A stretch of 36,324 nt of DNA from a virus, in the IMG/VR virus record IMGVR_UViG_3300038566_000156, positions 1 to 36,324 of that record; one strand, given 5' to 3'. Both the position numbers and the translations under genes were made by a program. How positions within the stretch are numbered: position 1 is the stretch's first letter; each line of letters begins with the position of its first letter. Shown piece after piece: positions 1,726-35,831 of this stretch. The notes beneath the pieces are model-generated. The model was not told where the DNA came from. It was given only the letters and a program-made list of their open reading frames with translations, and did no database searches.

Positions 1726-2376
1726 ATGGCTAAAAATATAGTTTCACAACCACCAATACAGGTTCCAATAACCGACCTAAGCGGCAATATTTCTAAGGCG
1801 TGGTCAATTTGGTTCCGCGATCTATACCGCCGAGTCGCATACAAAGGCGGTAATGCCATTGATGAAAACAAAAAAATCACAGATCAGGCAATAGATGGAA
1901 TCAACCTAGACGTTTCAGAAATTGACGACAAGCTACTTCTTGCTAATGCAACCATTGCCGAAGTAATTATTGCCGTTAATGAAAACGAAACTGAAATAAC
2001 AGCAAACAAAGCCGATATAGACAATCACATAGCGCTAGAATCCGCTCATGGTTCAAATGGAAATGTGGTTGGCTTTAACGATATTGCTACCGATGCCGTT
2101 GTGGGCTTAGTCAAAAGAATGCAGATTGTCGCCGATGCCGTAGATGCTACCAGTTCAAGCGTAGTAGTAAGTTCACCTAATGCTACAGCAGCACCGGCGG
2201 CATACGATCAAGCGCAAGTCCAAACCATTGTCACACTGGCCAATGAAACCAAGGCTGATGTTAATACTCTGGCCTCTGATTTGAATACCGTTGTCACAGA
2301 GGTTAATGCTATAGTTACTAAACTAAACAGTTTGATAGCCAACTCAAAAACAGCGGGGCAAATGAATAATGTCTGA
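1726..2376 (+). CDS. Tail needle / short fibre, coiled-coil trimer type (P22 gp26 position)
   Basis: 216 aa versus 233 aa for P22 gp26. It has heptad-like coiled-coil stretches ('ETEITANKADIDNHIALE', 'TKADVNTLASDLNTVVTEVNAIVTKLNSLI') and sits immediately after the gp10-like gene. Confidence 0.55.
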   Translation: MAKNIVSQPPIQVPITDLSGNISKAWSIWFRDLYRRVAYKGGNAIDENKKITDQAIDGINLDVSEIDDKLLLANATIAEVIIAVNENETEITANKADIDNHIALESAHGSNGNVVGFNDIATDAVVGLVKRMQIVADAVDATSSSVVVSSPNATAAPAAYDQAQVQTIVTLANETKADVNTLASDLNTVVTEVNAIVTKLNSLIANSKTAGQMNNV

Positions 2377-3232
2377 TAGCGTAAATGTAAGTAACGAGCA
2401 GAAAGGTATTGATATTGTCGGGGCTGCTTGCTTGCCTGATAAAGCCGAAAGCATTGCTTCGTTATTTGCACTTGAAGCCAAAATGAAAGAGTTCCCACAG
2501 CTTGATATTCCTATTGACCATCACTTTCATGCTGGTATGTATGCGCGTGAGCTTACAATTAAAGCAGGTACGCTACTAACCGGACGCATTCATAAGTTCG
2601 ACCACTTTGATATTATGCTAAGCGGTGATATTACGGTTTCAACCGATGACGGCCAAGTTAAGCGATTAACTGGTTTAAATATCATGCAAGGTAAAGCCGG
2701 TAAAAAACGCGCTGGCTATGCCCACAGTGATACGCATTGGATAACCTTTCATAGCACCGATGAGCGCCATGAAGATGAAATGCTTGATTACCTTACTTGT
2801 GAAACCTTTGAAGAGCTTGAAGATTTTAATGTTGCGGTAAATCGTGCTGATTACTTACTAATGGTCGATTCAATTGGAATGACCGAAGACGAGATCAGTA
2901 AGCAAGTAACCAATGAAGCCGATATGATGGCTATGCCTGATGAGTACAACATGGCATTCGTTGGCGAATCAAAGATTCATGGCAAAGGATATTTTGCAGA
3001 CCAATTAATAACAGGCGGCTCCCTTATTGCCCCGGCAAGAATTGGTGATTTTAGAACAGAAGCAGGGCGCTATACTAATCACGCACTAAACCCGAACGCC
3101 GCTATGGTAGTTTGTGGCTCCGGTGTAAACCTTATGGCCCTAAAAGATATTGAACCAGGTGAAGAGATTACGGCTAACTATCGTGATGTTATTAACCACA
3201 GATCAGAGCATGGTGATTTATGTCAGGCGTAG
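2369..3232 (+). CDS. Two-domain protein: N-terminal cupin-like beta-barrel plus C-terminal minimal SET domain (putative protein lysine methyltransferase)
   Basis: The C-terminal ~90 aa carry SET signatures: 'IHGKGYFA' (GxG region), 'RYTNHALNPNA' (NHxxxPN) and 'GEEITANY' (ELxxxY-type). Their spacing matches what I recall of chlorella-virus vSET. The N-terminal region 'HHFHAGMYARELTIKAGTLLTGRIHKFDHFDIMLSGDITV' is cupin-like. The gene occupies the P22 gene-14 slot. Confidence 0.7.
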   Translation: MSDSVNVSNEQKGIDIVGAACLPDKAESIASLFALEAKMKEFPQLDIPIDHHFHAGMYARELTIKAGTLLTGRIHKFDHFDIMLSGDITVSTDDGQVKRLTGLNIMQGKAGKKRAGYAHSDTHWITFHSTDERHEDEMLDYLTCETFEELEDFNVAVNRADYLLMVDSIGMTEDEISKQVTNEADMMAMPDEYNMAFVGESKIHGKGYFADQLITGGSLIAPARIGDFRTEAGRYTNHALNPNAAMVVCGSGVNLMALKDIEPGEEITANYRDVINHRSEHGDLCQA

Positions 3233-3906
3233 CAACGGCGATTGTTGGTTCCGCAGTAATTGGGGGATATGCAAGCAATCAAGCAAGTAATGCACAAGCA
3301 AAAGCCACAAAAGCCGGTATTCGCGCAGAGCAACAAATGAGCGCCGAGAACATAGCATTTCAGCGTGAAATGGCAGCAGAACAGCGAGAAGATTTTGCGC
3401 CGTGGACTGAGGCTGGCGGGCAAGCGCTAGATAAACTCTGGGCTGGCGTTCAGTCTGGCGAGTTTGAAGTTGGCAAGATTGATGTAAAGCAAGACCCCGG
3501 CTATCAATTTAGAATGAATGAAGGCGTAGAGGCGCTAGATAAATCAGCGGCAGCGCGAGGGCGATTACTTAGTGGCGCTCAAAACAAAGCCATTACAGAT
3601 TATGCACAAGGCCAAGCCAGCCAAGAATACGGCGCAGCCTATGCACGCGAGGCTGATGCTAAAGCTAGAAAATACAATATGCTTTCTGGCTTATCACAAC
3701 AAGGCCAAGCCAGCGCAGCGCGTCAAGCAGGCGCAACAAGTCAGCTTGCATCGACTGGCGGTAACATTATGGCTCAATCAGGGCAGGCGCAAAACATAGC
3801 ACAGCAGAACATAGGCGCAGCTAGAGCTAGTGCTTATCAAGGCATGGCTCAATCTACAAACCAAGCCGCGCAAAACTGGATGCTTTACCAATCACTAGGA
3901 AAATAA
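3220..3906 (+). CDS. Ejection (internal virion / DNA-transfer) protein, P22 gp7 position
   Basis: 228 aa versus 229 aa for P22 gp7. It has a hydrophobic Gly/Ala-rich N-terminus 'VATAIVGSAVIGGYA' and is otherwise Q/A-rich and low in complexity. Assignment rests on synteny. Confidence 0.55.
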   Translation: MSGVATAIVGSAVIGGYASNQASNAQAKATKAGIRAEQQMSAENIAFQREMAAEQREDFAPWTEAGGQALDKLWAGVQSGEFEVGKIDVKQDPGYQFRMNEGVEALDKSAAARGRLLSGAQNKAITDYAQGQASQEYGAAYAREADAKARKYNMLSGLSQQGQASAARQAGATSQLASTGGNIMAQSGQAQNIAQQNIGAARASAYQGMAQSTNQAAQNWMLYQSLGK

Positions 3907-3907
3907 C

Positions 3908-4819
3908 ATGGCAGCTAATCAATACGGTATCGACATGGCCGATATTTACCGCACAACAGCAGCGGTAAAGGGTGCCAGAACTAGAAACAAATTGGCAGAC
4001 CTTCAATTGTCTGAGGCTCAATATAAGATTGACCAGCGACCCATTGAAGAAGAGAAGAAAAACAAACTTACTGCATTGCGCCAGCAGTCGGTTACAGGTG
4101 ATGTTGATGCACAGCAGCAGTTATTAGCGCTTGATCCTGAGAACGGGCCTCAATTTATTGACGCTATAGGTAAAATGGATGAAACAAAACGCGCAGGCGT
4201 TAAGCGTAGTATTGATGAAATTGGACGCGGATCAATGTTTGTTCTTAATGGGAAAACCCCGGAAGAACAGGCGCAGCGCTATCAAACACTAAAAGAGAAT
4301 TTATCGCCAGAAGTAGCAGCAAAGCTACCCGAAACTTACGATCCGGCATTTATGGAGCTTTCACTATCAAAAGCTACTGCAATGGATAAGCTATTAGAGG
4401 CGCCTAAGTCGGTTGGTGTTGGTGGCGAGGATATTCTTTACCGTGGTGGCCGAGAAATTGAGCGTGCAGATAAGCCGGTTAAGGCGGGTGGCGCAGACGG
4501 CAAAGGCGGCTCCGGTGCTAGTAACTGGAAAGGATCAACTAGCATTAATACTATTCGCAGATTAACAGCAGACCTTGCAGGCGGTTTGTTTGATGAGCGA
4601 ACAGGACAGATAACTAAACTTCAAACTGGTACACGATCTGATATGCAAGCAGTAGTTGATGAAGCTAGTAGAATGCTACAGCTTGGAGAGGCAAATAATG
4701 AGGCCGAGGCCGTTACACTAGCAGCAAGAAAACTTAAAGTACCTTACGAAATTCCTAGTTTATCAGGTAATATTAGTAAAAATAACGCAATACCAGAAGA
4801 CCCTTTAGGCATTCGCTAA
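3908..4819 (+). CDS. Ejection (internal virion) protein, P22 gp20 position
   Basis: 303 aa, tightly packed between the gp7-like gene and the giant ORF. Assignment is by synteny only; I recognise no enzymatic motif. Confidence 0.45.
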   Translation: MAANQYGIDMADIYRTTAAVKGARTRNKLADLQLSEAQYKIDQRPIEEEKKNKLTALRQQSVTGDVDAQQQLLALDPENGPQFIDAIGKMDETKRAGVKRSIDEIGRGSMFVLNGKTPEEQAQRYQTLKENLSPEVAAKLPETYDPAFMELSLSKATAMDKLLEAPKSVGVGGEDILYRGGREIERADKPVKAGGADGKGGSGASNWKGSTSINTIRRLTADLAGGLFDERTGQITKLQTGTRSDMQAVVDEASRMLQLGEANNEAEAVTLAARKLKVPYEIPSLSGNISKNNAIPEDPLGIR

Positions 4820-4835
4820 ACCAAGGAGAACGACC

Positions 4836-7800
4836 GTGAGTCAGTTCATCGCAGATTTTAGAAAAAAGAACCCGCAATACAATGATATGGCAGACGACCA
4901 ATTAGTTTCTGCTCTTCATCGCAAATACTATTCTGATATGGATGTTGAGGCATTCAATCAAAAGATAGGCTATCAATCAGTTGCCGAGCAGCCTATCGAG
5001 CAGGTTCAAGCGGTAGAGCCGCAGGTGGAGCCTACCCAGGCTAAAGCTATTCAATCGGAAGTCATACCGCAGCAAGAAGTCATTGAGCAGCAAGAACAAG
5101 AGCCTTCAATGTTTGATATGGTTAGCTCAAAGCTTAATGAGCTGGCAGCAGACCCAGTGCCGAATGCTGTTAAAGGTGCAATAGAGCGTGCAGGTGATGT
5201 TGGCGCGGGATTCTTAACCACTATCAATACCGCAGCAAGAGAAGCCGAGCAATCTATGCCAATTGGCGGTTTTGTTTGGGATGGTGGAGTATTGCCAAGC
5301 TATAAGGGGCCAGAAGAATACCAAGCTTACTTACAGCAAGGCGGTAAGGATATTCTAGCTGAAACCGAAGAAAGCGCTAAAGGCTTAGAGGCTGGCTACA
5401 TTCCTACGCATACCTGGGAAGAGGTAAAGCGCGAATTTTCAGAGGGTGGTGCTTTAAGCGGCAGCGCTTGGGGTGAGGTTGTTGGCTATATTGGCGAACA
5501 GGGGGTTAAATCCATTCCTGATATGGCAGCAGCGCTATTAAACCTACCTAGTTATATTATTGCCAGATCGGGTGAAATCGGTGAAACGCGAGCGGAAAAC
5601 AAAGGCAAAGATAAGACAGACTTAATTGATATTGTTGAAGCCGTACCTTTTGCCGTAGGTAGCGCACTATTAGAGCGAATTGGGGCAAAGGGGATTACTG
5701 AAGCAGGAGCAGAGGCTTTTGGTAAGGAAGCATTAAAATCAGGATTCAAAGAAGCAGCTAAGCGAACAGCTAAAGCAGGGGCTAAAGCTGGCACCAAAGA
5801 AGCGGTAACCGAAGCAATTCAAGAGGGTATGATTGAATATGCAGGCGAGCGACTAGGCACTAATGCAAAGATGACTCTTGCCGAATCACTAGACCTTGCA
5901 GCAGCGGGCGCGGTTGCTGGTGGCGGTATGGGTGGTGGTGCAGGTACGGTTTCAGCAGGTTACAAAGAAGCCACTTACAACCCAGAGGCAGAGCTAGGCA
6001 AAGCACTTAACAACCTTATCGACCAATCGCGCTTTGAGATTGACCAAGAGGCTATTACAAGACAATTCGACCCAGCTAATGCACAGCTAGAAGCTAGACC
6101 ACAACAAGAAAGCACCGAAGGCACAATAAAGTTAAAGCCACACACTCCGCTTGAATTAACAGGTGAGTTTGAAGGCGTGCAGCCTAAAGGTGAATTTGCA
6201 CCAGGTATGCCTGAAAGCACACCGGCGGTTTACGATATTCCAGAAGCACCAAAAAATACAAAGCAGATCGCAGAAGAAAAGGCCGAGCCTAAAGAGCAGG
6301 GCCAAATTAAAGGCTTGGCAGTTGTTGAAGCGCCAATTGATGAAGTCACTCTTTCGAGTGATGTGCCGCAATTCAAGGAAGGTGCTAATGCTAGTGGTGT
6401 TGTTGAACCATTAGGCGGTAAGTTTGAGCGCACCGGTGTTGCACCAATTCAAATATGGGTTCGAGAAGATGGCCGAAAAGAAGTTATTTCCGGTCGCCAT
6501 AGCTTAGACCTAGCAAAGCGCAGCGGTGAACAAACAATCCCAGCACAGTACCACTACGAGAGCGAAGGCTTTACCGTAGAGCAAGCAGCATCATTAGACG
6601 CTATTCTTAATATTCGTGAAGGCCAAGGCAAGGTAAAAGATTATGTCGAATTCATACAAGCAACAAAGCCAACAGAAGCCGAAGCAGCAGCACAAGGCAT
6701 TTTGGCAAGACAAACGGGCAAACGGGCGTTCACAATCGCAGATTCAGGAAGCGATACGCTCATTGCCAGTCATCGAGCTAACCAAATCAGTGACGAAGCA
6801 GCCACAAGGATAGCAAGAGCAGCGCCAAAGAATGACGCGCTTCAATCGGTAGGCATTAAAGCTATTCAGGATGGTAAGACTATCATCATGGCTGAAAACC
6901 TAGTTAAAGCCGTTGGCAGCATGACCACCGACAAGCAGCAGGCTACAGACGATTTATTCGGCTTTGATGATTCAGCAATGAAAGAAGCCGTTGAGCTCGC
7001 CAAGAAGGTTGGCAAAAAGCAGGCGGAGATTCAGCGCACATTGACCGCGGTAACCGGTGCGGCCAAAAACCCAGAGCTTGCCAGAAAAGAAGGGGTAGAC
7101 GTTAAAGACCCCGAAGGCATTAAGAAGAAGATCAAGCAGCTTAAATCTAAAAAGAAAGCATGGGATAACTGGCACACCAACCCAAAGCTAATGGAGCAAT
7201 TGACGGGCAAGAAAAAGGCCGACCAATTACCAGCCAAAGAAGAAGTCACCAAAAAAGAAGAAAAAAGCTACGATGTAGACAAGTGGAACTACAAACAAGG
7301 TAAAGCTGATAGTACGCAACCAGTGCGCACCAAAACAGTTAAAGGTATTACGCTTAATGTAAGTGAAAGCTTTGAAGATAAGCAAATGTTCGCGCTTAAC
7401 TCCGATGGTGAAGTGGTAGGCGATTTATTCTTTTCTTTTGATGAAGGCAAGCTATACGGTTCGGTTGAGGTAAGAGAAGACAGTCGCAGGCAAGGCATTG
7501 CCACAATGATGTATGACTTTGCCAGCGAGATAGAAGGCGTTGAGATAAACCCGTCAGAAGGCCATACGGATGATGCGGCCGCATTTTGGGCAGACCGAAA
7601 AGCAAAGAAAAAGCCAGAGCTATCCCAATCAGATGCCGACCGTTTGATTGCTGATGTTAAAAGCAGTGATCTAGGCGTAAGCCGTACCAATGCGCTAATC
7701 AAAGACATTACCGATGCGGTAAATGGCAAGCAGGAGTCAGTTAAGCGACAACTTAAAAACCTAGCCGAGCTTAACGACAAACAAAGCAAATCTGAAACCA

Positions 7801-10800
7801 AGGCCAAGACAGAAGAAACCAAAGCCAAAACAAAAAAGACCCAGCAAGAAAGCAAAGCAGCACTTGAAAAAGAGCAAAAGCGCGAACGTATTTATTCCGG
7901 TAACTATGAAGGACTGCAACCAAATTACGTTACCTGGTTAAAGTCACTGAGCGATACCAAGCGAAAAGAATTGTTTGCTAAAGGTTCTAACCCAACTATT
8001 GCGAACAGTGAGTTTATTGCTTACAAGCCAGATTTTGATCTAGGCCAGCAGACCGAAGCCGACATTAAAGCGGCAGAAGAGAAGCAGGCTAAAGCCAAGG
8101 CCGAAGAAAAAGCAGCAGAAGCAAAGGCCGAAGCCGATAAGCAAGTGGATGACTTTGTACTTGCCGGTTCCGACCGAGTAGCAGACCAAGCCGAAGCTAG
8201 AGGTCAAGCTGGATTATTCGATGCACCGGCAGAGCCAAAAGCGCAGCAAACAGATTCTACGATAGAAATTAAGCGCGATGGCAAAACAGTAGCAAGCGTT
8301 GATTATTCAGTCTTTGAAGGCATACCAGCCGTTAAGATGATTAATACCGATCCAGATTACCAACGACAAGGATTAGCAACAGAAGCGCTTATAAAGCTGC
8401 AAGCTAAGTTTCCTGATGTTGAAATTGATCTAGGCTCACTAACAGGCGATGGTGCAAAGCTAATTGATTCGCTTGAGTACAATGTTATTGGTAGTGGTGA
8501 TTATGAATCGACCGTAAATAAGCTAGAAGAAACTGAGGCCAAGCTAGAAGAATATAGTGAACTGGCTGAAAACTTTAACTTTTCAGAAGCTACGGAAGCA
8601 GAAAGATTAGAATACAGAGAAGCAACAAAAGACTGGGATGACCTTCACGATCTTAAAAATGATTTAGAAAATGAACTGGCAGAGCTTGAGCCTTCAAAGA
8701 AAATCATCATAGGAAAGAAAAAGAAAGCAGAGCCAAAAGCTAAAAAGGAGCCAGTGGCTAGTTCCAAAAAGGAACCAGCCACTAAAGACCCTATCAAACT
8801 GGACTACTCAAACAATGCCGTTATCGCATTTCATAAGTTTAGAGAGTCAACGGGGAAAGGAACGGCAACCAAGCAAGATATTCAATCTAGTTTTGATGAT
8901 CTAGTCGAAAGCAAAGACGCGGTACTGGCACAGCTTAAAAAGCTAACCAAGGCGCAGTTGCTTAAATACGTTGGCCGTAGTGATCTTAAAAAGCCTGCTA
9001 TGGTAGAGGCAGCTTATAAAACGATGTTAAGCGCTCATGTTTTTGGCGATATGGTTATGACTATCTTCGGTGGAAGTAAGACCTATGAAGAACAGATAGC
9101 TGAAAAAGTAGCAAAACAAACTCAAGAGCAAATCGAAACCGACTATGAGCGCCAGCGTGAAGCAAGAGCAGAGCGCGACAAGCGAAAAGAATCCTTTGTT
9201 AAGTCGCTAACCAATCCCGAAACCTTGGCCGAGTATAAGGAATTCATTCGTGTACGCGGAAAAGCAAAGCTAACCACTGAGCAGCTAAAGACCTATGACA
9301 CGCTAGTTGCTGATTCAATGCTAGAAGAAGACAAGGCCAAGCCAAAAACCGTACAGGGTGAAGCTGAAGCGGTAGAAACTACCCGCGCAGAAACAACCCA
9401 CGCGAAGAAAGGCCACCAGCTATTTGTTGTCTCGCTTGTTAATCGTGTTAGCAAAGAGCAATACAAAGAACTCAATGATAAGGCCAAAGAGTTTGGCGGC
9501 TACTACAGCGCTTATAACAAAGCTGGTGCTATCCCAGGCTTTCAATTTAAAACGATTGAAGAGGCCGACCAATTCGAGCAGGTATTGAAAGGCAAGGATA
9601 CCGACAAGAGTGATTTTGAAGAAGCCAAAGCCGATGTTAAGAATTCCAAGCAAGCCGACAAGCTTATGGAAATGGCCGACAAGCTAGAAGCAAAGGGAAA
9701 TGAATCACTAGGGCAAGACCGCCAAACCAATACCGGTAAGCGTGCAGCGCAGGCAGCCAGCGCAAGCGAGAAAGCTTACAAGCAGATAGCAACGGCTCAA
9801 ACGGTTAAGCAGATTGCCACAAAAATGGCAGCGGGTGAGATCGTTTACTTGGGCAAGATGACGCAGATAACCCAACTGGAAGAGCTTAAGGCTATTCAGC
9901 GCAAGGCAGTGCCTAGCTCAATGATGCACAGCGAGTACGATGGTTATTCCATTAGCAACTCAATGAAAGAAGGCGTGACGGTAGAGGATTATATTAATAA
10001 CGTCCGTATGCCTGAGCTGTTTATTGATAAAGAGCGAGCGAAGCGCTTCAGCGATAAGCTTGATGGGGTGAAAGGGTTTAGCCGATTTTCTGCAGAACTT
10101 AAAAAACTGCCAATGGCAGAGGGTAAAGTTCACCTTGGCCGATTGACGAAAGACCAAGTTAAAAAAATTCATGACGCGGTGAAAGCTGGCCACCTTAGTT
10201 CTTACGAGCTTGGCTTTATTCCAGATCGTGAAAAGACAATGAATCGCCTTGATAAGTTAGGCATTAAAACCGATGAGCAATTACGTACAGCTATTCGTGA
10301 ACTTGATTCGCTAACGGTTACCGAGCAGAAAGAAGACCCAATTAAAAAGCTTGAGCGTGACTTAGTTGGCAAGAAGATCGAAGGTTATTTCCCAACGCCT
10401 CGCGAACTGGTTGAGCAAATGATTGACTATGCTGAAATTCAGCCAGGTCACCAAGTGCTAGAGCCTTCTGCCGGTAAAGGGAATATTGCCGACATTATCA
10501 AAGAGTCTGAGCCTAATGCTGAAATCGATGTTATCGAAATCAATCAAGGCTTGCGCTCAATGCTTGAGATCAAAGGCTATAACGTAGTTTCTAACGACTT
10601 CACTGAATACGATGGCAAGCAGTACGACAGAATCATAATGAATCCGCCGTTTGAGAACTTCCAAGACATTGATCACGTTAAGCACGCCTATGAATTGTTA
10701 AAGCCTGGTGGCAAGTTAGTTGCCATCATGGGTGCTGGTGTCAAAAATTCACGCAAGAAGGCTGTAGAGTTCCGCCAATGGATTGACGAGTCTGGCTCTT

Positions 10801-13800
10801 ACATTGAAGACCTGCCCGATGGCAGCTTTAAATCTTCAGAACGCCAGACGGGTGTTGCCACAGTGATGGTGACGATTGATAAGCCTGATACCAATACGCT
10901 AAACCGCCGAGAAGATGAGCAGCCAGCGAAGCTAAATAGCGGCCAGCCTTCGGTTGTGCACGCCCCAGGTCATAACTATGTAGACCTTTATCGCTCCACC
11001 GGCATTCCTTCACGCAAGGAAGTTTTCACCATTGAGGGCCGCAGCATTAAGATGCCAGCAGAGCCGCAGCGTATAGAGCCAATTATGCGCCAGCTAGTAA
11101 AGATCATGGGCCGCAGAATTTACAACGGCAAAATCAAAGGTAAATCAGTACAAGGATTTTACCGTAGCGATGTTGGTGAGCTTAGAACCGCTCGCAAGAA
11201 TGATGTTGAGATTTTGGCGCATGAAATGGCTCACTACCTCGACCTATATTCAAATGTCTCTTTGCCTAACTTCAAAAGGCTTTATAAGCAGGCCGCGTTT
11301 AAAGATGAGGTTGCAGCACTAAGCTATACCGATGATAAAAAATTGGAGCTGCTAGAAGGCTTTGCCGAGTTTGTGCGCCTATGGCTGACCAATTCAAACG
11401 AAGCGAAGCTAAGAGCGCCAGGCTTTTATGATGCCTTTGTTAAAGAGCTTGCGCGTGATCGCAAGCTATTGAATCCAATGCGTGACATGCAGGAAGCAAT
11501 GCACAAGTTTTACTTCCAAGGTTCTGACAAGCTTGGGCAAGCGCTTATTGGTCGTGACGAAGGTGTTTATGGGAAGTTCATGGATTGGACCTATCGCCGT
11601 GACAGCCTTGTTCGCCAAGAAACAATTGATAAGTTTCACGCAGCGCGAGAAGTTGAAAAAGAATTAACCGGTAAGCTAAGCGATCCAGTACAGGGCTCAG
11701 CGTGGAAGCAATTCAGAATTGCAAACGGCGGATATGAGGGCATAGCAGAATACATTATGAACTATGGCACCTTAGAGTTTGCCGAAAACGGTGACCTGGT
11801 TCGCAGTGGTAAAAGCCTTTATGAAATCCTAAAGCCGGTCGATGAACTCAAGGGGTTGATTAAAGCTGATCCAAAATACAAAGGCCAAAAGCCTATTGAT
11901 TTATTAATGCGTTACTTTGCCGGACGTAGAGCTTTGGAACTTCACCGCCAAGGCCGCGAGAATCTTATTCCTAAAGAAACCGCTAAGGAATGGGCAAAGA
12001 TGGGAAGAACATTCCCGATGTTCGGGAATATTTTCATTGAGTATCAAGAGTTCAATACTCGCATGATGGATATGTACCAGCAGGCAGGTCTATTGACTCC
12101 TGAAGCGCGTCAAACAATGGAGTCCGTTAATAAAGATTATGTCCCATTCAACCGATTGCGCGATAGCCTAGAAGAAGGCAAGGGCGGCGGTGGCGGATTT
12201 CAGCGCTTAAAAGGCGGCACTGCTAACCTTGAAGATATTCTTCACAATATTCAAGACGGCGTAACATCAAACGTAAAAGCCGCACTGGATGCAAAAGCAA
12301 AGCAGCGCTTGTATCAATACATTGCTAATCACCGTGACGGGGCTATTTGGGCGACTAAGATAGCGCCAGATTCCAAGCTAGTTAAAACTCACTTGGCCGA
12401 CATGGAAAAGAAAATTGGCGAAGTGCTAGAAGCTTCAGGCGTAGTGATTGAGGGCGAACTAGATTTAAGCGACCCAGGCTTATTAAACTTTTGGCAGCAT
12501 GGCGTAAAGCCAACGCTAACCGAGTCGGGTAATTTTGTTGATACCGTTTTAATAAATGGCAAGCCGCAATATTTTGAAGTGCAAGACCCGCTACTGCAGG
12601 AAATGCTATTGACCATGAATGGCGAATCTTACAGCTCGCTAATGAATGGCATGTTTGCGGTGAAAAACTTCTTCACCCGTAGCATTACATTAGGCGTTGA
12701 ATTTACTGGGGCCAACCTGGTGCGCGATACAATTGGCGCGACCTTCATTAGTAAAAATAAGTTCATGCCTTTCGTTGGTTCATTCAAAGGAATGTATTCG
12801 TACCTATCAAGGGATGAGCACTTTCAAGACTTTATGCGTTCCGGTGGTGGTTACTCTAGCCGCTTACATGGAAGCACCAAAGCAGGCAAGGCTCGCCAGC
12901 GTGTGCAAATTAAAGACGTTGGCGTGGGTAATAGAACTCAGCGCATGCTAAGCGCATTCGATAATATTATGAGCGCGTTTGAATACGGTACTCGTATCGG
13001 TGAATTCAGACTGGCCAAAAAGAACGGCGCAAGCGATATGGATGCAGCCTTTGCAGCACGCGAAATATCGACCGACTTCAGTGTTTACGGGGCTAACCAT
13101 TTCTTGACGGGCTACATTCGCACTGTGCCTTTCTTGAATGCAATGATTCAGTCTCAAGATCGTGTATTTAGAGAAGCGTTTATTAAAAACAAGTACGGCG
13201 GTAACCCTACAGGATTGGCAATGAAAGCCTTTCTAGGCCTGACCGTACCAACGCTATTGCTTTGGCTGTTCAACAAGGATGACGAAGAATACAAAGAGAT
13301 TCCAGATCATGAGAAGCGCACCAATTGGCATATACCCCTAGGCAATGGCCGATTTATGAAAATGCCGCGCCCTTACGATGTTGGTTTTGTTTATGCCACT
13401 ATGCCAGAGCTTTTCTTTAAGTACTTAGAAGACGAAAACGGAAAAGAGTATGCCGAAGGTATGGCTTGGACAATGCTACAAATGTACGGCATTGACGGCG
13501 TTCCTGCAGCGGCTCAAGGCTGGTGGGATATTACCCGCAACAAGAAATGGACGGGTGCGCCAGTTGTGCCGCATGGAATGGCCGATGTGTCAGCAACTAA
13601 TCAATACAATTCAAACACCAGTGAAACCTTTATTCGATTAGGCCAAGCGCTTGGAATGAGCCCGATAAAAGCAGAGCATGCCTTTAAAGCTCAGACTGGT
13701 TACCTGGGCGGCTACTTGCTTTGGGGAACTGAGAAGCTAATGTGGGATGAAGACAAGTTTGGCGAAATGCCAGACAAAGACGTTTCTAGCAATATTTTCA

Positions 13801-14276
13801 TTAAGCGATTCCTTACGCCAGAAACTCGACCTAATAACCGCAGCATGGAAAAGTTCTTTGATTTAAAAGAACAATCTGACCGTGTGACCGCAGACTTTAA
13901 AGCCGGTATTGATATTCGCAGAATGATTAAAGGCGACAAGCAAACAGAATTTGAAAAAGACGATACGTTCTTTGGGCTAAGCAAAGGCGAAAAAGAAGTA
14001 TTGTTTGCACTGAACGATTCAATGAATGATCTAATCAGTATTGCTTACGGTAAGGAAGGAATAAAGACTCAAGAGCATTCAATACGCTACAATCCTAAAC
14101 TAACTGCCGAGCAAAAACGCGAAAGCCTTGATAAGCTATGGCAACAAAGAAACGCAATGTTCACTCAATACTATAACGAAGCTACCAAGGCGCTAGACAA
14201 AGCCAAGAAGGTTGCTAAGAAAACAGGCATTGAAGGATCACGAAACGAACTAATGAAAAATAAAGAAGGTAAATAA
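4836..14276 (+). CDS. Giant polyvalent protein (3146 aa) in the P22 gp16 ejection-protein slot. It carries a ParB-like domain, two mini-GNATs, an N6A DNA methyltransferase, a zincin metallopeptidase and a large C-terminal module.
   Basis: GTG start with RBS AAGGAGA at 4822..4828, followed by 9.4 kb of uninterrupted ORF. Motifs: 'GRHSLDLAKRSG' (6492..6527), 'RRQGIAT' (7485..7505), 'QRQGLAT' (8361..8381), 'VLEPSAGKG' (10455..10481), 'NPPF' (10641..10652), 'HEMAH' (11220..11234). K/E/A-rich linkers separate the modules. Confidence 0.85.
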   Translation: MSQFIADFRKKNPQYNDMADDQLVSALHRKYYSDMDVEAFNQKIGYQSVAEQPIEQVQAVEPQVEPTQAKAIQSEVIPQQEVIEQQEQEPSMFDMVSSKLNELAADPVPNAVKGAIERAGDVGAGFLTTINTAAREAEQSMPIGGFVWDGGVLPSYKGPEEYQAYLQQGGKDILAETEESAKGLEAGYIPTHTWEEVKREFSEGGALSGSAWGEVVGYIGEQGVKSIPDMAAALLNLPSYIIARSGEIGETRAENKGKDKTDLIDIVEAVPFAVGSALLERIGAKGITEAGAEAFGKEALKSGFKEAAKRTAKAGAKAGTKEAVTEAIQEGMIEYAGERLGTNAKMTLAESLDLAAAGAVAGGGMGGGAGTVSAGYKEATYNPEAELGKALNNLIDQSRFEIDQEAITRQFDPANAQLEARPQQESTEGTIKLKPHTPLELTGEFEGVQPKGEFAPGMPESTPAVYDIPEAPKNTKQIAEEKAEPKEQGQIKGLAVVEAPIDEVTLSSDVPQFKEGANASGVVEPLGGKFERTGVAPIQIWVREDGRKEVISGRHSLDLAKRSGEQTIPAQYHYESEGFTVEQAASLDAILNIREGQGKVKDYVEFIQATKPTEAEAAAQGILARQTGKRAFTIADSGSDTLIASHRANQISDEAATRIARAAPKNDALQSVGIKAIQDGKTIIMAENLVKAVGSMTTDKQQATDDLFGFDDSAMKEAVELAKKVGKKQAEIQRTLTAVTGAAKNPELARKEGVDVKDPEGIKKKIKQLKSKKKAWDNWHTNPKLMEQLTGKKKADQLPAKEEVTKKEEKSYDVDKWNYKQGKADSTQPVRTKTVKGITLNVSESFEDKQMFALNSDGEVVGDLFFSFDEGKLYGSVEVREDSRRQGIATMMYDFASEIEGVEINPSEGHTDDAAAFWADRKAKKKPELSQSDADRLIADVKSSDLGVSRTNALIKDITDAVNGKQESVKRQLKNLAELNDKQSKSETKAKTEETKAKTKKTQQESKAALEKEQKRERIYSGNYEGLQPNYVTWLKSLSDTKRKELFAKGSNPTIANSEFIAYKPDFDLGQQTEADIKAAEEKQAKAKAEEKAAEAKAEADKQVDDFVLAGSDRVADQAEARGQAGLFDAPAEPKAQQTDSTIEIKRDGKTVASVDYSVFEGIPAVKMINTDPDYQRQGLATEALIKLQAKFPDVEIDLGSLTGDGAKLIDSLEYNVIGSGDYESTVNKLEETEAKLEEYSELAENFNFSEATEAERLEYREATKDWDDLHDLKNDLENELAELEPSKKIIIGKKKKAEPKAKKEPVASSKKEPATKDPIKLDYSNNAVIAFHKFRESTGKGTATKQDIQSSFDDLVESKDAVLAQLKKLTKAQLLKYVGRSDLKKPAMVEAAYKTMLSAHVFGDMVMTIFGGSKTYEEQIAEKVAKQTQEQIETDYERQREARAERDKRKESFVKSLTNPETLAEYKEFIRVRGKAKLTTEQLKTYDTLVADSMLEEDKAKPKTVQGEAEAVETTRAETTHAKKGHQLFVVSLVNRVSKEQYKELNDKAKEFGGYYSAYNKAGAIPGFQFKTIEEADQFEQVLKGKDTDKSDFEEAKADVKNSKQADKLMEMADKLEAKGNESLGQDRQTNTGKRAAQAASASEKAYKQIATAQTVKQIATKMAAGEIVYLGKMTQITQLEELKAIQRKAVPSSMMHSEYDGYSISNSMKEGVTVEDYINNVRMPELFIDKERAKRFSDKLDGVKGFSRFSAELKKLPMAEGKVHLGRLTKDQVKKIHDAVKAGHLSSYELGFIPDREKTMNRLDKLGIKTDEQLRTAIRELDSLTVTEQKEDPIKKLERDLVGKKIEGYFPTPRELVEQMIDYAEIQPGHQVLEPSAGKGNIADIIKESEPNAEIDVIEINQGLRSMLEIKGYNVVSNDFTEYDGKQYDRIIMNPPFENFQDIDHVKHAYELLKPGGKLVAIMGAGVKNSRKKAVEFRQWIDESGSYIEDLPDGSFKSSERQTGVATVMVTIDKPDTNTLNRREDEQPAKLNSGQPSVVHAPGHNYVDLYRSTGIPSRKEVFTIEGRSIKMPAEPQRIEPIMRQLVKIMGRRIYNGKIKGKSVQGFYRSDVGELRTARKNDVEILAHEMAHYLDLYSNVSLPNFKRLYKQAAFKDEVAALSYTDDKKLELLEGFAEFVRLWLTNSNEAKLRAPGFYDAFVKELARDRKLLNPMRDMQEAMHKFYFQGSDKLGQALIGRDEGVYGKFMDWTYRRDSLVRQETIDKFHAAREVEKELTGKLSDPVQGSAWKQFRIANGGYEGIAEYIMNYGTLEFAENGDLVRSGKSLYEILKPVDELKGLIKADPKYKGQKPIDLLMRYFAGRRALELHRQGRENLIPKETAKEWAKMGRTFPMFGNIFIEYQEFNTRMMDMYQQAGLLTPEARQTMESVNKDYVPFNRLRDSLEEGKGGGGGFQRLKGGTANLEDILHNIQDGVTSNVKAALDAKAKQRLYQYIANHRDGAIWATKIAPDSKLVKTHLADMEKKIGEVLEASGVVIEGELDLSDPGLLNFWQHGVKPTLTESGNFVDTVLINGKPQYFEVQDPLLQEMLLTMNGESYSSLMNGMFAVKNFFTRSITLGVEFTGANLVRDTIGATFISKNKFMPFVGSFKGMYSYLSRDEHFQDFMRSGGGYSSRLHGSTKAGKARQRVQIKDVGVGNRTQRMLSAFDNIMSAFEYGTRIGEFRLAKKNGASDMDAAFAAREISTDFSVYGANHFLTGYIRTVPFLNAMIQSQDRVFREAFIKNKYGGNPTGLAMKAFLGLTVPTLLLWLFNKDDEEYKEIPDHEKRTNWHIPLGNGRFMKMPRPYDVGFVYATMPELFFKYLEDENGKEYAEGMAWTMLQMYGIDGVPAAAQGWWDITRNKKWTGAPVVPHGMADVSATNQYNSNTSETFIRLGQALGMSPIKAEHAFKAQTGYLGGYLLWGTEKLMWDEDKFGEMPDKDVSSNIFIKRFLTPETRPNNRSMEKFFDLKEQSDRVTADFKAGIDIRRMIKGDKQTEFEKDDTFFGLSKGEKEVLFALNDSMNDLISIAYGKEGIKTQEHSIRYNPKLTAEQKRESLDKLWQQRNAMFTQYYNEATKALDKAKKVAKKTGIEGSRNELMKNKEGK

Positions 14277-14277
14277 T

Positions 14278-17112
14278 ATGGCAGTTTCAATGATTGGCCC
14301 AAAGTTCTACGCTTTCGACCGTGACGGCAAGCCATTAGCTTTTGGCAAGGTTTACACCTACAAAGCGCGAACCAATGATCCAAAAGCAACATACACAAAT
14401 GAAGATAGCATTACCGCAAACACCAATCCCGTTATCTTGAATGGCGAGGGATATGCGGATATTTACTTAACTGGATCGTATAAGGTTGTCGTTAAAGACA
14501 AAGACGGTAATGAGATATGGACAGCAGACCCGGTAAGCGAGGCGGCAGGCATTGGATTTTCTTATATTGTTACTGCTTATTATGCTTCATCATCATCATT
14601 TAATATTCTAGGCGATCATCAAGAAGCTTTTGCCATTGGTGCGCGTGTTGAGCTTTCATTCTTGGATGCCTTGAAAACTGAAACAACGGTTACAGCTTCA
14701 AGTTTTGATGGAACTAACACGGCTGTAGAAGTATTCGACACAGTGGTTCGCACAAGCATCACTAGTGCTGGAATATCAACCGGGTTTTCCTCTTTAGCTG
14801 ACTTTTCAGAGTTATCTTCTTCGCAATTAACAGAGCAAAAGGCACAATTTCAGAGTCGCTTTGCACTGGTGCAGCCTGCTTTAAGCTGGACAGCCAATAC
14901 ACTGGTTGATAATCCGCTCCAGCTTTACAGCACAGGAACGCAAGGCGTTTCTGTTTATCAACAATGGCTACCCGACCCAAATCAACTACCTTTCACTACA
15001 GGTAACACATTTGCAGAAGATCAGGCGTTAGGTCGTTGGAGTGAGTCGCGAGTTGCGAGCGTTGATTATGTTGATAACGCAAAAGCAGACGCTATTAGTG
15101 AGTCAGCGTCATATGTGAATGAGTCATCAATTACTTTTGATAGTCTCACAACAGCAATATCAAAAATAACAAATCATCCAGAATCATATAAGCGGCTATC
15201 TACTTTAAGTTTTCGCAATGCTGATGAGTGTAGCGCGCTAGGGATAAAGTACCCAGATGGGGGCGGTGCTGAGTATGTTGTTGAAGCATTAGGCACTCCT
15301 GACGGCTATGGAGATCACGCAGCAGGAACCAAACAACTCACACTGAACGAGACAAACGTAAATACTAGAATGTACGGTACACGTTCCACAGCGTCATTTG
15401 ATAATCACAGCCGAATTATGGCTGCACTATTAGCTAATAAATCTGTTGAGGTTTTAGACGATGTTTTATTAGTGTCTGATGAGTTAGAGATACCAGAAAA
15501 CACTACGCTTTTCTCTGACAGCTTAGCTGGTGAAATTAAAGCGATGGATACTTTTACTGGCTCTAATATTGTTTCTATAGTGAACTATGGCGCTAGTGCA
15601 AAAGGTCTTAGAGTAACAGGTAATAGCAATATTACCGCTGCTGATGTTGAGAATCTAACTGAAAAATTTAATGATTATGACACTGCTGTTGCTATGGCAG
15701 ACGTGGGAGATTTGAATGGTATTAACGTGTCATCTGAACGATGTACTGTTGAAGATAATTACGTTACTCAATGCTCTGGTTACGGAATAAAAACAGAGTA
15801 CAACGCTGTTGGTTCTCAGCAACCGTTATCACGACACATTGCAAAAAATACTTTTGCTTACAATATGGTAGGGATGTACGAGGACGAGCGTTCAGAGTAC
15901 GCCGTATTGCTGAGCAATACATTCAAATACAACTACTACGGGGTTATTTGTGTCGGTGGTAATAACTCACATGTTGGTAATAAAATCGACCATAACCGTG
16001 TAAACGTCATGCTGTTATCAGGATTGAATGATAGCCATGGCGAATTTACTGGCGGATCAATGAATCACGCTAAGCTGGGAACACTGTTAGTTGACAAAGT
16101 CGGTAACGGCGAATTGTTTACAGGTGTTAGTATTTTCGATGGTGGTGCCCTAGGGATAACGATCAAAGAGTCACGCGGTGTGAAAATATCTGGTGGTACT
16201 ATCTCACGATGCGGAGTGTACTCAACTGGTGAATACGCGGACGCTTCCTTACCTGACAATGTGGGCACAAACCTGATTTCTAATAATCAATTCTATCTAT
16301 ACGGTGTAGATCATACTATCGAAGTTGAAGGTAGTAATACTAAACTTATTAGAAACAACGGTATGGAAGGTGTAAACGTAAGTACGTACGAAGAAACATT
16401 AAATAATGGAAAGTACGACGCAGAGCTTTGGCAAGCTAGGGGTGATGGTACAACTCCTGTTTACAGCGGAAGGGATATTGCAAGTTATTTCACAGGATTG
16501 GTTAATACAGCTGGAGCGGTAGCTATTAAATTTCCACAACCTATGAGCAATTTCGCTTTTAAGATGAATGTTGAAATAATAGGCTTGTCGAATCTACCAG
16601 TTGATTTGGTAATCACTGGTTACGTAGCTGGTGGTAGCCCGTATACTTGGACTGTTGCAAGCGTGACTAATAATACGTCAAATAACATATATGATATAAA
16701 CTTTGGTTTTTTAGCTGATAACACGCCTGTTATTTATATTGGTAATACTACATCTAATTTCAGATACCAGTTCATTAATATAAAAAACTTTACCGGCTTT
16801 CTTGGTAACTTTAAATCACTGCACTATTATAAATACAATTGGATTATAGATAGAGAATCAACTGCTTTACAGGGTGTAACTAAAACAGTTACATCGCCTG
16901 CTCTGCAATTCACCGGAGATTTAGATACCATCCTGACTATTTATGAATCACCTGTTTCACCAAGTGCGGCAAATTTACCCGTCGCTCATGCGGGGTATAT
17001 AGTATCAAAAATTGTAGGGAGCAGCGGTTATCACGAGTACACAACTGTGATCGGTGCTCGGTATGTTCGAGGGTATAATGCAGGAGCATTCGGTGGGTGG
17101 GGATTAAAATAG
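14278..17112 (+). CDS. Tailspike with a right-handed parallel beta-helix (probable polysaccharide depolymerase)
   Basis: The N-terminal ~90 aa 'FYAFDRDGKPLAFGKVYTYKARTNDPKATYTNEDS...GNEIWTADPV' is the conserved particle-binding module seen in many podovirus spikes. The central region has PbH1-like repeats ('VEDNYVTQCSGYGIKT', 'IAKNTFAYNMVGM', 'LSNTFKYNYYGVICVGGNNSHVGNKIDHNRVNV', 'GITIKESRGVKISGGTISRCG'). It starts 1 nt after the giant ORF. Confidence 0.8.
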   Translation: MAVSMIGPKFYAFDRDGKPLAFGKVYTYKARTNDPKATYTNEDSITANTNPVILNGEGYADIYLTGSYKVVVKDKDGNEIWTADPVSEAAGIGFSYIVTAYYASSSSFNILGDHQEAFAIGARVELSFLDALKTETTVTASSFDGTNTAVEVFDTVVRTSITSAGISTGFSSLADFSELSSSQLTEQKAQFQSRFALVQPALSWTANTLVDNPLQLYSTGTQGVSVYQQWLPDPNQLPFTTGNTFAEDQALGRWSESRVASVDYVDNAKADAISESASYVNESSITFDSLTTAISKITNHPESYKRLSTLSFRNADECSALGIKYPDGGGAEYVVEALGTPDGYGDHAAGTKQLTLNETNVNTRMYGTRSTASFDNHSRIMAALLANKSVEVLDDVLLVSDELEIPENTTLFSDSLAGEIKAMDTFTGSNIVSIVNYGASAKGLRVTGNSNITAADVENLTEKFNDYDTAVAMADVGDLNGINVSSERCTVEDNYVTQCSGYGIKTEYNAVGSQQPLSRHIAKNTFAYNMVGMYEDERSEYAVLLSNTFKYNYYGVICVGGNNSHVGNKIDHNRVNVMLLSGLNDSHGEFTGGSMNHAKLGTLLVDKVGNGELFTGVSIFDGGALGITIKESRGVKISGGTISRCGVYSTGEYADASLPDNVGTNLISNNQFYLYGVDHTIEVEGSNTKLIRNNGMEGVNVSTYEETLNNGKYDAELWQARGDGTTPVYSGRDIASYFTGLVNTAGAVAIKFPQPMSNFAFKMNVEIIGLSNLPVDLVITGYVAGGSPYTWTVASVTNNTSNNIYDINFGFLADNTPVIYIGNTTSNFRYQFINIKNFTGFLGNFKSLHYYKYNWIIDRESTALQGVTKTVTSPALQFTGDLDTILTIYESPVSPSAANLPVAHAGYIVSKIVGSSGYHEYTTVIGARYVRGYNAGAFGGWGLK

Positions 17113-35342: not shown

Positions 35343-35828
35343 ATGTCTAAAATCTATTTATTTCATAAAGATCAGCCAGAAGGCAAAGCGTTTGACGTTG
35401 AAGTTGTACGCGCTAAGCAAGATAAAATGAAGAAGGACGGCTGGGTAGATACTCCGGCATTGCTAGACCTTCCAAAGCCTAAGCCTAAAGCTATTACCGA
35501 TGAAGAAGCCAAACAAGCAAAGCCGCAAGAGTTGGTTGCCATGGTTAAAGCGCTTGGCTACATGGTTTTAACAGAAGTAGAATTTACCGCAGAAGTTAGC
35601 AAGGCGGCGCACCAGCTACACGTTGATGCCGGATTAGCAAATACAGAAGAAAAAGATCAAAAGCTATCTGAAACCGAAGAAAAGCTAATTGCTCAATTTG
35701 AAGTTGATGCCTTCAGCTTAACCAAGCCAGAGCTAATTCAAGTTGGTAAATTGCATAATGTGCGTTTAACTATGAACCACAATGAAGATACAATGGTAGA
35801 GAAAATTCAAGAAGCGATGGCGGTTTAA
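35343..35828 (+). CDS. Hypothetical structural-module protein (161 aa) with a possible HeH/SAP-like C-terminal motif
   Basis: It lies between coat and adaptor. The C-terminus 'LTKPELIQVGKLHNVRLTMNHNEDTMVEKIQEAM' resembles Rho-N/HeH helix-extension-helix motifs that are common after phage capsid genes. Confidence 0.5.
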   Translation: MSKIYLFHKDQPEGKAFDVEVVRAKQDKMKKDGWVDTPALLDLPKPKPKAITDEEAKQAKPQELVAMVKALGYMVLTEVEFTAEVSKAAHQLHVDAGLANTEEKDQKLSETEEKLIAQFEVDAFSLTKPELIQVGKLHNVRLTMNHNEDTMVEKIQEAMAV

Positions 35829-35831
35829 AAT

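Follow-up and report, generated by a model that had tools for sequence, protein, structure and literature searches.

The viral genome IMGVR_UViG_3300038566_000156 (hereafter the window, meaning the entire stretch of 36,324 nucleotides (nt) that was analyzed) contains one giant open reading frame (ORF) at 4836-14276 on the plus strand, the product of which, at 3146 amino acids (aa), is a phage-type polyvalent protein that probably stands in for the last of the three ejection proteins, the gp16-like one, of a small marine phage related to P22. Its anatomy was delineated using profile scans, module-by-module BLAST comparisons with relatives and metagenomic homologues, and two AlphaFold models (Table 1). 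Membership in the class of polyvalent proteins (Iyer et al. 2017), as proposed in an initial annotation made from the sequence alone, is borne out by a strong match to the Pfam domain LPD38 (E 3.9e-40), by the presence of unrelated enzyme modules, and by the late virion context of the gene; LPD38 is exclusive to phage-type polyvalent proteins, and such genes are found among late virion genes (Iyer et al., PMC5512222). The window protein is a clear example of this already described class and no new kind of system. What is new here is the placement of a zincin-like site within a constant core of ~1075 aa, a series of cargo arrangements carried on one genomic backbone, a ParB-like fold, and a signature of cysteine avoidance.

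The gene order of the window corresponds to P22 4-10-26-14-7-20-16...9, and Pfam identifies its portal (E 5e-181) and coat (E 2e-42) proteins as P22-type. The giant ORF occupies the slot of P22 gene 16, as stated in the initial annotation: a gp7 homologue and a gp20-position gene lie upstream, a tailspike-position gene lies downstream, and the stop codon of the giant ORF is 1 nt from the tailspike-position start. Nine syntenic genomes all lack a second gp16-like gene in the interval from the gp20-position gene to the tailspike, and some part of the giant ORF must therefore cover the third ejection role, unless this role is dispensable.

Integrity of the giant ORF

The giant ORF has a GTG start, a ribosome-binding site (AAGGAGA) 6 nt upstream of it, and no internal stops, and it encodes a protein of 350.6 kDa with an isoelectric point of 5.76. 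It takes up 9441 of 36,324 nt (26.0%), in line with the single uninterrupted frame of about 26% reported initially. The ends of the window overlap by ~50 nt (the first 50 nt recur at the other end), and an ORF of ~283 codons in the gp4, or tail-accessory, position crosses these ends (35825-36324 continuing at 1-356), indicating that the window is a circularly closed assembly and a complete genome, not a fragment, so that the 26% share refers to the whole ~36.3 kb genome.

An ORF of this length in a metagenome contig could be an artefact, either an assembly chimera or several genes joined by missed frameshifts, and the gene of the closest relative, L010, does contain an in-frame stop. However, two independent assemblies from other samples (P0309 and P0310, one from JGI and one from Logan/ENA) encode the same full-length protein with 99.94% and 99.97% identity, eight isolated phages carry collinear, unbroken ORFs of 2631-3640 aa in the same slot, and the cysteine-free composition is uniform over the entire ORF. 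The probability of an artefact is thus negligible, and chimerism and missed frameshifts, which had been named at the outset as possible grounds for refutation, are ruled out for practical purposes by the independent assemblies and the eight isolate ORFs. A megablast search of 50,697 phage records with the giant gene gave no matches; its relatives were found at the protein level only.

The constant C-terminal core

The C-terminal third of the giant protein is a constant core, predicted to be one mostly helical unit. All 85 homologues recovered by a word-index search with a C-terminal query align from aa ~2040, just upstream of an HExxH motif, to aa ~3115, at identities down to 22%. This search gave only proteins shorter than ~2000 aa, and architecture statistics were therefore taken from an exhaustive search of 1.84 billion cluster representatives with a hidden Markov model (HMM) of the core, which yielded 24,329 matches at E<=1e-3 and 15,851 at E<=1e-30. 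In nearly all of the best 150 of the 24,329 matches, the core is located at or near the C-terminus of proteins that range from 815 to 4153 aa. The domains found ahead of the core in homologues are highly diverse, including ddrB-ParB, InPase, SLT, phage lysozyme, M23, RadC, helicase, PBECR, and anthrax-lethal-factor-like domains. Since the core match extends far beyond the LPD38 model (189 positions), LPD38 represents a fragment of a larger conserved unit.

The AlphaFold model of the core (aa 2030-3146) is mostly helical, with a mean predicted local distance difference test score (pLDDT) of 77.5 and a predicted template modeling score of 0.72. In the BFVD database it matches 77 predicted viral structures (E up to 1e-3), the top-ranked of which have template modeling (TM) scores of 0.5-0.65 over ~1000 aligned columns and are C-terminal pieces of "large polyvalent proteins", including one from coliphage PTXU04 (E 3e-41, TM 0.64). 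Ejectosome entries of PhiM1 and cyanophage A4 also appeared as likenesses of the core (E >1, probability 0.02) and were treated as chance. A PDB sequence profile search with the core returned noise only.

In an alignment of 30 homologues, ~90% keep the two motifs of the zincin-like sub-domain, HEMAH and EGFAEF. Scanned with Pfam as part of the whole protein, this region reaches a SprT-like family at only E 0.19, and the tiled Pfam scan missed it. Because core homology begins upstream of HExxH, the zincin-like site belongs to the constant unit and is no separate effector. Two elements of the initial annotation, which had placed the zincin as one effector in a string and had set apart a C-terminal module of ~900 aa, are hereby replaced: both are parts of a single unit of ~1075 aa. 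Near the LPD38 match, the core also contains a hydrophobic helix whose hydrophobicity is kept in 30 of 30 aligned homologues, making it a candidate membrane-inserting segment; a second hydrophobic segment, at aa 261-279, is only borderline.

Variable cargo on one backbone

Orthologues of the giant protein are encoded in the same slot, between the same flanking genes, by Bocovirus-like marine podophages, namely Shewanella phage X14 (gp01), Thalassomonas phage BA3 (BA3_0002), Vibrio vB_ValP_FGH (FGH), D478, 1.183.O, 1.211.A, and V. crassostreae phages; gp01 of VvAW1 is a more distant Vibrio relative. Across this clade, aa 1-430 are 43-50% identical and aa 1295-3129 are ~64% identical, and the window protein is 400-500 aa longer than its orthologues, VvAW1 excepted. 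Homologous giant genes in the same slot are thus present in BA3 (2007), VvAW1 (2012, as 'DarB-like antirestriction'), X14, and ~15 other Vibrio phages, or ~20 sequenced phages in total, and the largest gene of X14 was noted in the corresponding paper as a conserved methyltransferase. Given these genes and the >24,000 clusters with the core, the novelty claimed for the architecture in the initial annotation was overstated.

Comparison of these proteins revealed a constant N-module and core with variable cargo in between. The shortest member, encoded on a 36.8 kb contig (L012, Logan SRR12611921), consists of the N-module, ~180 aa, and the core, and has no ParB, GNAT, or methyltransferase module. 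The slot proteins of FGH, 41E34.2, and BA3 are without the ParB-fold and GNAT region; those of X14, D478, 1.183.O, and 1.211.A have the ParB-fold module and one GNAT; and those of the window and its closest relative, L010, have a second GNAT added. The segment carrying this second GNAT (aa ~1092-1295) is present in L010 and missing from X14, D478, FGH, 1.183.O, 1.211.A, 41E34.2, BA3, and VvAW1. In VvAW1 the slot protein, at 3640 aa, has only the core in common (37% identity) and carries an Eco57I-type methyltransferase with a SNF2/ResIII helicase. Given the absence or variation of cargo across a syntenic clade, the enzymes are accessory, and what the slot requires is the N-module and the core. 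The N-module is 43-50% identical across all clade relatives, and a sub-module of it (aa ~104-353) is mobile and present in other architectures as well. The L012 contig has the same synteny and genome size as the window, with an extra 490-aa gene behind the tailspike.

Table 1. Features of the giant ORF and its neighbors in the window, with the shortest related slot protein
Feature	Position (strand)	Length or residues	Remarks
gp10 counterpart	358-1725	455 aa	phmmer E 7.5e-11 vs P22 gp10
Needle (gp26) position	1726-2376	216 aa	by position only
gp14 position	2369-3232 (+)	287 aa	by position only
P22 gp7 homologue (first ejection protein)	3220-3906 (+)	228 aa, 0 Cys	phrog_598 (the PHROG of P22 gp7), E 1.7e-40
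gp20-position protein	3908-4819 (+)	303 aa, 0 Cys	conserved in clade and VvAW1
Giant ORF, gp16 (third ejection protein) position	4836-14276 (+)	3146 aa	phage-type polyvalent protein
Small helical N-terminal domain	4836-4970 (+)	aa 1-45	pLDDT 82-90; conserved in all Bocovirus-like relatives
N-module	5109-6125 (+)	aa ~92-430	helical, Gly/Ala-rich; low pLDDT; constant in clade
ParB/Noc/KorB-like module	6315-7220 (+)	aa 494-795	nucleoside triphosphate-binding N-domain and helical domain; mobile cargo
Mini-GNAT 1	7377-7544 (+)	aa 848-903	Acetyltransf_7, 31.1 bits vs cut-off 27; motif A RRQGIA at 884
K/E/A/Q-rich low-complexity linkers	7728-8210 (+)	aa 965-1022 and 1056-1125	
Mini-GNAT 2	8256-8411 (+)	aa 1141-1192	Acetyltransf_1 in 2 stretches, 32.7 bits vs cut-off 20.7; QRQGLA at 1176
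Helical region 5' of methyltransferase	8718-10370 (+)	aa ~1295-1845, ~550 aa	64% identity across clade
Gamma-class amino-methyltransferase	10371-10910 (+)	aa ~1846-2025	FPTP (motif X) 1852, EPSAGKG (I) 1876, NPPF (IV) 1936
Constant core	10953-14180 (+)	aa ~2040-3115, ~1075 aa	one predicted, mostly helical unit
Zincin-like sub-domain of core	10983-11555 (+)		HEMAH aa 2129-2133, EGFAEF aa 2174-2179
Conserved hydrophobic helix (candidate membrane-inserting segment)	13212-13271 (+)	aa 2793-2812	Kyte-Doolittle 1.77 (19-residue window)
LPD38 (PF18857)	13281-13775 (+)	aa 2816-2980	E 3.9e-40 (138 bits vs cut-off 27); E 1.1e-41 tiled
Tailspike-position protein	14278-17112 (+)	944 aa	N-terminal ~167 aa match relatives' tailspikes
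Slot protein of L012 (positions on its own contig)	7001-12166	1721 aa	N-module, ~180 aa, core

Cysteine avoidance

The giant protein contains no cysteine (Cys) in 3146 aa, compared to 34.5 expected from the 1.1% frequency in the other ORFs of the phage (P ~8e-16). The giant proteins of 8 of 8 relatives are likewise free of Cys, as are the 4602 aa of Bcep22 gp75. Core homologues follow the same pattern: the 85 word-index homologues hold 7 Cys in 135,410 aa (80 of them have none), and 134 further core representatives hold 33 in 268,864 aa (118 have none). The same applies to proteins encoded next to the giant ORF and to established ejection proteins, in that Cys is absent from the gp7-like and gp20-position proteins of the clade, from P22 gp7, gp20, and gp16, and from N4 gp52, gp51, and gp50, the last of which is the 3500-aa virion RNA polymerase (vRNAP), while T7 gp14, gp15, and gp16 have 1, 0, and 0, respectively. 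In contrast, other proteins of these phages do contain Cys (portals, terminases, and proteins of the tail and of replication), and P1 DarB, a head protein of a myovirus, has 9.

In proteins that pass unfolded through the tail channel and the oxidizing periplasm, Cys may be selected against because of disulfide formation or the trapping of metals; threading in an at least partly unfolded state would explain the exclusion. A search of the searchable literature library for reports linking ejection proteins with a Cys-free composition found nothing relevant. If general, Cys avoidance would offer a cheap sequence filter for predicting ejected proteins.

Cargo modules

At least five enzymatic modules separated by K/E/A-rich linkers had been proposed initially. 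The linkers are present, the two GNATs and the methyltransferase are supported by profile matches, and the ParB fold is supported by a structural model only and the zincin by its conserved motif only. The GNAT calls were obtained by a Pfam scan on tiles of the giant protein, and both GNATs contain the acyl-CoA-binding motif A (Q/R-x-x-G-x-A/G).

The ParB-like module was modeled with a pLDDT of ~90. A Foldseek search against the PDB, a check suggested in the initial annotation, recovered 7bnr, 7nfu, 6t1f, and 8qa9 (E 2e-5 to 1e-4, probability 1.00); the model matches the cytidine triphosphate-binding N-domain and the helical domain of ParB, Noc, and KorB at target-normalized TM scores of <=0.62, and it matches sulfiredoxin more weakly. 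At the sequence level, the tiled Pfam scan gave no match for this module at E up to 5, and a PDB sequence profile search was empty; the ParB_N model matches 1 of 22 family members (E 0.004), there is no match to the Pfam ddrB-ParB family (PF18763), and an HMM of the module scores only 2.6 bits against P1 DdrB. As judged from the predicted structure, aa 494-795 are thus ParB-like at the level of fold and lie outside the Pfam ddrB-ParB family. The module is found, at 50-72% identity, in ~80 metagenomic proteins of very diverse architecture. The window carries one unusual residue in it, namely serine for arginine at position 556 (R556S; codon AGC, 6501-6503), giving SGRHS in place of the SGRHR of the family, with R554 kept. 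Arginine is found at this position in 31 of the 32 homologues aligned, in 5 of 5 module-bearing relatives, and in both independent assemblies, and R556S is either a private, possibly inactivating variant or a sequencing error of the window contig.

The methyltransferase matches the Pfam family MTS (E 9e-7), the PADLOC models mad2 (E 3e-20) and type II methyltransferase (E 1e-9 to 1e-11), and PHROG 'DNA methyltransferase' families. Matches in NCBIfam are sub-threshold only, a single-sequence PDB search of the giant protein found marginal methyltransferase matches only, and a PDB profile search with the methyltransferase unit found weak, generic Rossmann-fold methyltransferases, TaqI among them at E 0.1. 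EcoKI/TaqI-like adenine methyltransferases have been described in polyvalent proteins (Iyer et al., PMC5512222), and the sequence motifs of the window domain fit this type. For the helical region 5' of this domain (aa ~1295-1845), Pfam, the PDB, and other annotation sources gave no match. Region and methyltransferase always occur together, in giant proteins as well as in independent proteins of 640-730 aa that correspond to the unit of aa ~1295-2040, and the helical region may serve the methyltransferase in target recognition or be a domain similar to LPD36 of Iyer et al. No helicase follows the methyltransferase, and the whole-protein Pfam scan detected no helicase family at E up to 1; a comparable scan of the VvAW1 protein detects ResIII, SNF2, and Helicase_C.

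In the closest relative, L010 (Logan SRR14763462), a TCA->TAA change at 4765-4770 (window aa ~1908) introduces a stop between motif I and NPPF, with an ATG directly after it. This could be a real nonsense mutation with re-initiation, implying a dispensable methyltransferase and a core that is still needed, or an assembly error.

Proposed packaging and delivery, and alternative roles

Support for packaging and ejection is indirect but consistent, and much of it comes from homologues with the same core. The core HMM matches the C-termini of Bcep22 gp75 (E 2.5e-47) and 933W p72 (E 1.8e-32). JC1 gp69, the stated homologue of Bcep22 gp75, was identified in CsCl-purified virions by mass spectrometry with 51 unique peptides. 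The 2811-aa gp47 of phi24B, which contains LPD5, LPD1, and LPD38, was likewise detected in virions by mass spectrometry, where it is abundant yet unseen in the cryo-electron microscopy (cryo-EM) map, and its authors propose that it is an ejection protein; from size and domain content, 933W p72 (2806 aa) appears to be its counterpart. The core-matching protein of PTXU04 is presumably PTXU04_00025, a putative polyvalent protein of 2198 aa that was fitness-essential in CRISPRi-ART screens. There is also precedent for passage of very large enzymes through a short tail, since the third ejection protein of N4-like phages is a 3500-aa enzyme present in 4 +/- 1 copies and thought to unfold for this purpose. 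Delivery of the giant protein by the virion is therefore plausible, and we infer packaging, ejection, and processing for the window protein, as well as targets for each of its enzyme modules, along the following lines.

A few copies of the giant protein would be packed into the procapsid together with the gp7-like and gp20-position proteins. On infection, the protein would thread its way through the portal and the channel of the tail in an at least partly unfolded state, and its N-module and core would help to build or anchor a trans-envelope conduit at the inner membrane, possibly via the hydrophobic helix. The cargo, whether still attached or cut free by the zincin, would enter the cytoplasm together with the leading DNA. 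There, the methyltransferase could methylate adenines of the incoming DNA before phage gene expression, the ParB-fold module could bind DNA or nucleotides, and the GNATs could acylate host proteins before phage transcription, such modifications together blunting restriction or other defenses.

A role confined to the cytoplasm, in which the giant protein would be a late methyltransferase/acetyltransferase that modifies progeny DNA or host factors and stays outside the virion, is very improbable. It agrees with existing annotations ('DNA methylase subunit', 'N-6 adenine-specific DNA methylase', 'GNAT.../phospholipid N-methyltransferase') and with the fact that the methyltransferase and GNATs are the only strong profile matches to characterized enzyme families. 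However, the gene is embedded in the virion/ejection block, immediately ahead of the tailspike gene, syntenic relatives can do without the enzymes whereas the non-enzymatic core is found throughout, and counterparts of two core-bearing homologues have been detected in virions by mass spectrometry. In addition, a cytoplasmic enzyme would have no reason to avoid Cys, and X14 already has separate small DNA methyltransferases, gp07 and gp08.

More serious, although still unlikely, is the possibility that the giant protein is an internal protein of the head, packaged and carried along with the DNA in the manner of P1 DarB, and takes no part in the conduit. The core would then be a module for capsid targeting and maturation, leaving the gp7-like and gp20-position proteins, possibly joined by the N-module, to form the conduit. 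Consistent with this, encapsidation of the N4 vRNAP requires a region that contains its zincin domain, and P1 DdrB undergoes processing ahead of its incorporation into the head (Iyer et al., PMC5512222); the core is unlike any solved ejectosome component and has a single hydrophobic helix, and the abundance of phi24B gp47 in virions, combined with its invisibility in the cryo-EM reconstruction, points in the same direction. On the other hand, the nine syntenic genomes contain no other gp16-like gene before the tailspike, the PTXU04 homologue is essential, and the strict avoidance of Cys reaches through the core, as in proteins that leave the virion and in contrast to P1 DarB with its 9 Cys.

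Replacement of the third ejection protein by the giant protein, the preferred interpretation, is itself weakened by several observations. Searches by sequence and by profile detected no similarity to ejection proteins of P22 (gp16), of N4, or of the T7 type. For P22 gp16 specifically, phmmer gave E 0.07 in a database of 8 sequences, the core HMM gave no match, and the two proteins belong to different PHROGs (phrog_770 for gp16, phrog_15406 for the giant protein), so that the fusion to an ejection protein suggested in the initial annotation has no counterpart in detectable gp16 homology. Against the PDB, the core model finds no significant solved-structure match (best Foldseek E 1.3). The zincin fold assignment is weak, combining the motif with Foldseek matches of the region to minigluzincins and anthrax lethal factor at E >2 and probability 0.2-0.33. 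Only one clearly hydrophobic helix is present, compared to the two membrane regions described for gp16-like proteins in a review. With respect to cargo, loss of the near-invariant R556 means that the ParB-like module of the window may be inactive, interruption of the L010 methyltransferase by a stop means that cargo may matter less than proposed, and the best PDB sequence match of the methyltransferase is the protein methyltransferase HemK (E 1e-3). Finally, the papers on X14, VvAW1, and BA3 go no further than annotating the gene, and packaging in this lineage is argued here from core-bearing proteins of other phages and from sequence features.

A broader generalization can be offered tentatively, with the odds somewhat against it. 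The zincin- and LPD38-containing core of ~1075 aa may be a general delivery chassis that replaces gp16 in many podoviruses, in which case the core and a short N-module would suffice for encapsidation, tail passage, and inner-membrane anchoring, and any Cys-free enzyme placed upstream could be carried in and freed by the core metallopeptidase. Exclusion of Cys would then be a general rule for the ejected proteins of short-tailed phages. Polyvalent proteins are common, with the core alone occurring in >24,000 representative clusters, and this core has never been characterized biochemically or structurally. The slot proteins described above form a natural series on one 36-37 kb backbone, from 1721 aa (N-module and core) through 2631-3146 aa to 3640 aa, that is suited to studying the function of the core, the packing of a 350 kDa protein into the small capsid of a podovirus and its exit from there, and which host defenses are countered by which injected enzymes. 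The availability of cultured relatives (X14, FGH, and V. crassostreae phages) makes these questions on the core, capsid exit, and defense testable.

Comparison with known polyvalent and ejection proteins

The LPD38 polyvalent proteins Bcep22 gp75/JC1 gp69, phi24B gp47/933W p72, and PTXU04_00025 (Iyer, Burroughs, Anand, de Souza & Aravind 2017, PMC5512222) share the C-terminal core with the window protein and, like it, combine unrelated enzymatic domains, are encoded among late virion genes of podoviruses, and avoid Cys. The share of the genome is also similar, at 22% for the JC1 gene and 26% for that of the window. Cargo differs: the methyltransferase of the window protein comes without a helicase and is accompanied by a ParB-fold module and two mini-GNATs, whereas in Bcep22/JC1 a methyltransferase-helicase pair is combined with a lytic transglycosylase and LPD3, and phi24B carries LPD5, LPD1, and MuF-C. 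Unlike the other LPD38 examples, the window phage has a small (36 kb) P22-like genome with the gene exactly in the gp16 slot.

The antirestriction proteins of P1, to which the initial annotation likened the giant protein, provide an analogy only. P1 DarB is similarly large, has an adenine-methyltransferase-type domain with NPP(Y/F), is expressed late, and is proposed to act on DNA as it enters the cell at the onset of infection, and P1 DdrB combines a ParB-superfamily domain with a zincin, comparable to the ParB fold and the zincin-like site of the window protein. However, DarB has a superfamily 2 (SF2; SWI2/SNF2) helicase C-terminal to its methyltransferase, which the window protein lacks, and packaging in P1, a myovirus, follows another system, one dependent on DarA and Hdf. 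Comparison of the window protein with DarB, DdrB, and DarA by BLASTP was empty, the core profile gave no match, and no score exceeded 10 bits, with the HMM of the methyltransferase unit reaching 4.2 bits against DarB. Membership in the DarB family was rejected, given the absence of a helicase and of detectable DarB homology.

Among ejection proteins, the vRNAPs of N4 and DEV (gp50 and gp71) are comparable in being enzyme-bearing proteins of ~3500 aa encoded beside two smaller ejection-protein genes, and their payload, an RNA polymerase, is unlike the cargo of the window protein; N4 gp50, gp51, and gp52 gave nothing above 10 bits with the core and cargo profiles. The gp16 proteins of P22 and T7, which are inner-membrane and cytoplasmic ejection proteins, resemble the window protein in gene position, absence of Cys, helical character, and possession of a hydrophobic segment. 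At five times the size of P22 gp16 (609 aa), the window protein falls outside the published range of 609-1337 aa for gp16-like proteins. Homology to vRNAP or to gp16 was rejected, with no match above 10 bits for N4 and no phmmer or HMM match for gp16.

Neighboring genes

In phmmer and HMM comparisons of the window with P22 gp7, gp20, gp16, gp26, and gp14, no matches were obtained, and only gp10 was matched; the gp7 homologue was recognized through its PHROG. The gp20-position product has no detectable homology to P22 gp20 and falls outside the PHROG of that protein. The tailspike-position protein is 43-54% identical to the tailspikes of X14, L012, and L010 over its N-terminal ~167 aa, and its remainder is unrelated to them and gives a weak beta-helix signal (NosD, E ~1e-4). 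An unrelated remainder behind a common N-terminus is the usual pattern of receptor-binding domain swaps.

The 287-aa protein in the gp14, or 'short tail fiber', position has a C-terminal SET domain (aa 167-271), which scores above the threshold of PF00856 (E 2.8e-8). Domains of this type methylate lysines, and this product may be a second virion-associated effector. It has 4 Cys, unlike the ejection proteins. Orthologues in X14, D478, FGH, BA3, and V. crassostreae phages are without the SET domain and only ~186 aa long, and the SET fusion recurs in a few uncultured phages, in Rhodoferax phage P26218, and in Pseudoalteromonas phage PH1, the last with 46% identity across 91% of the protein.

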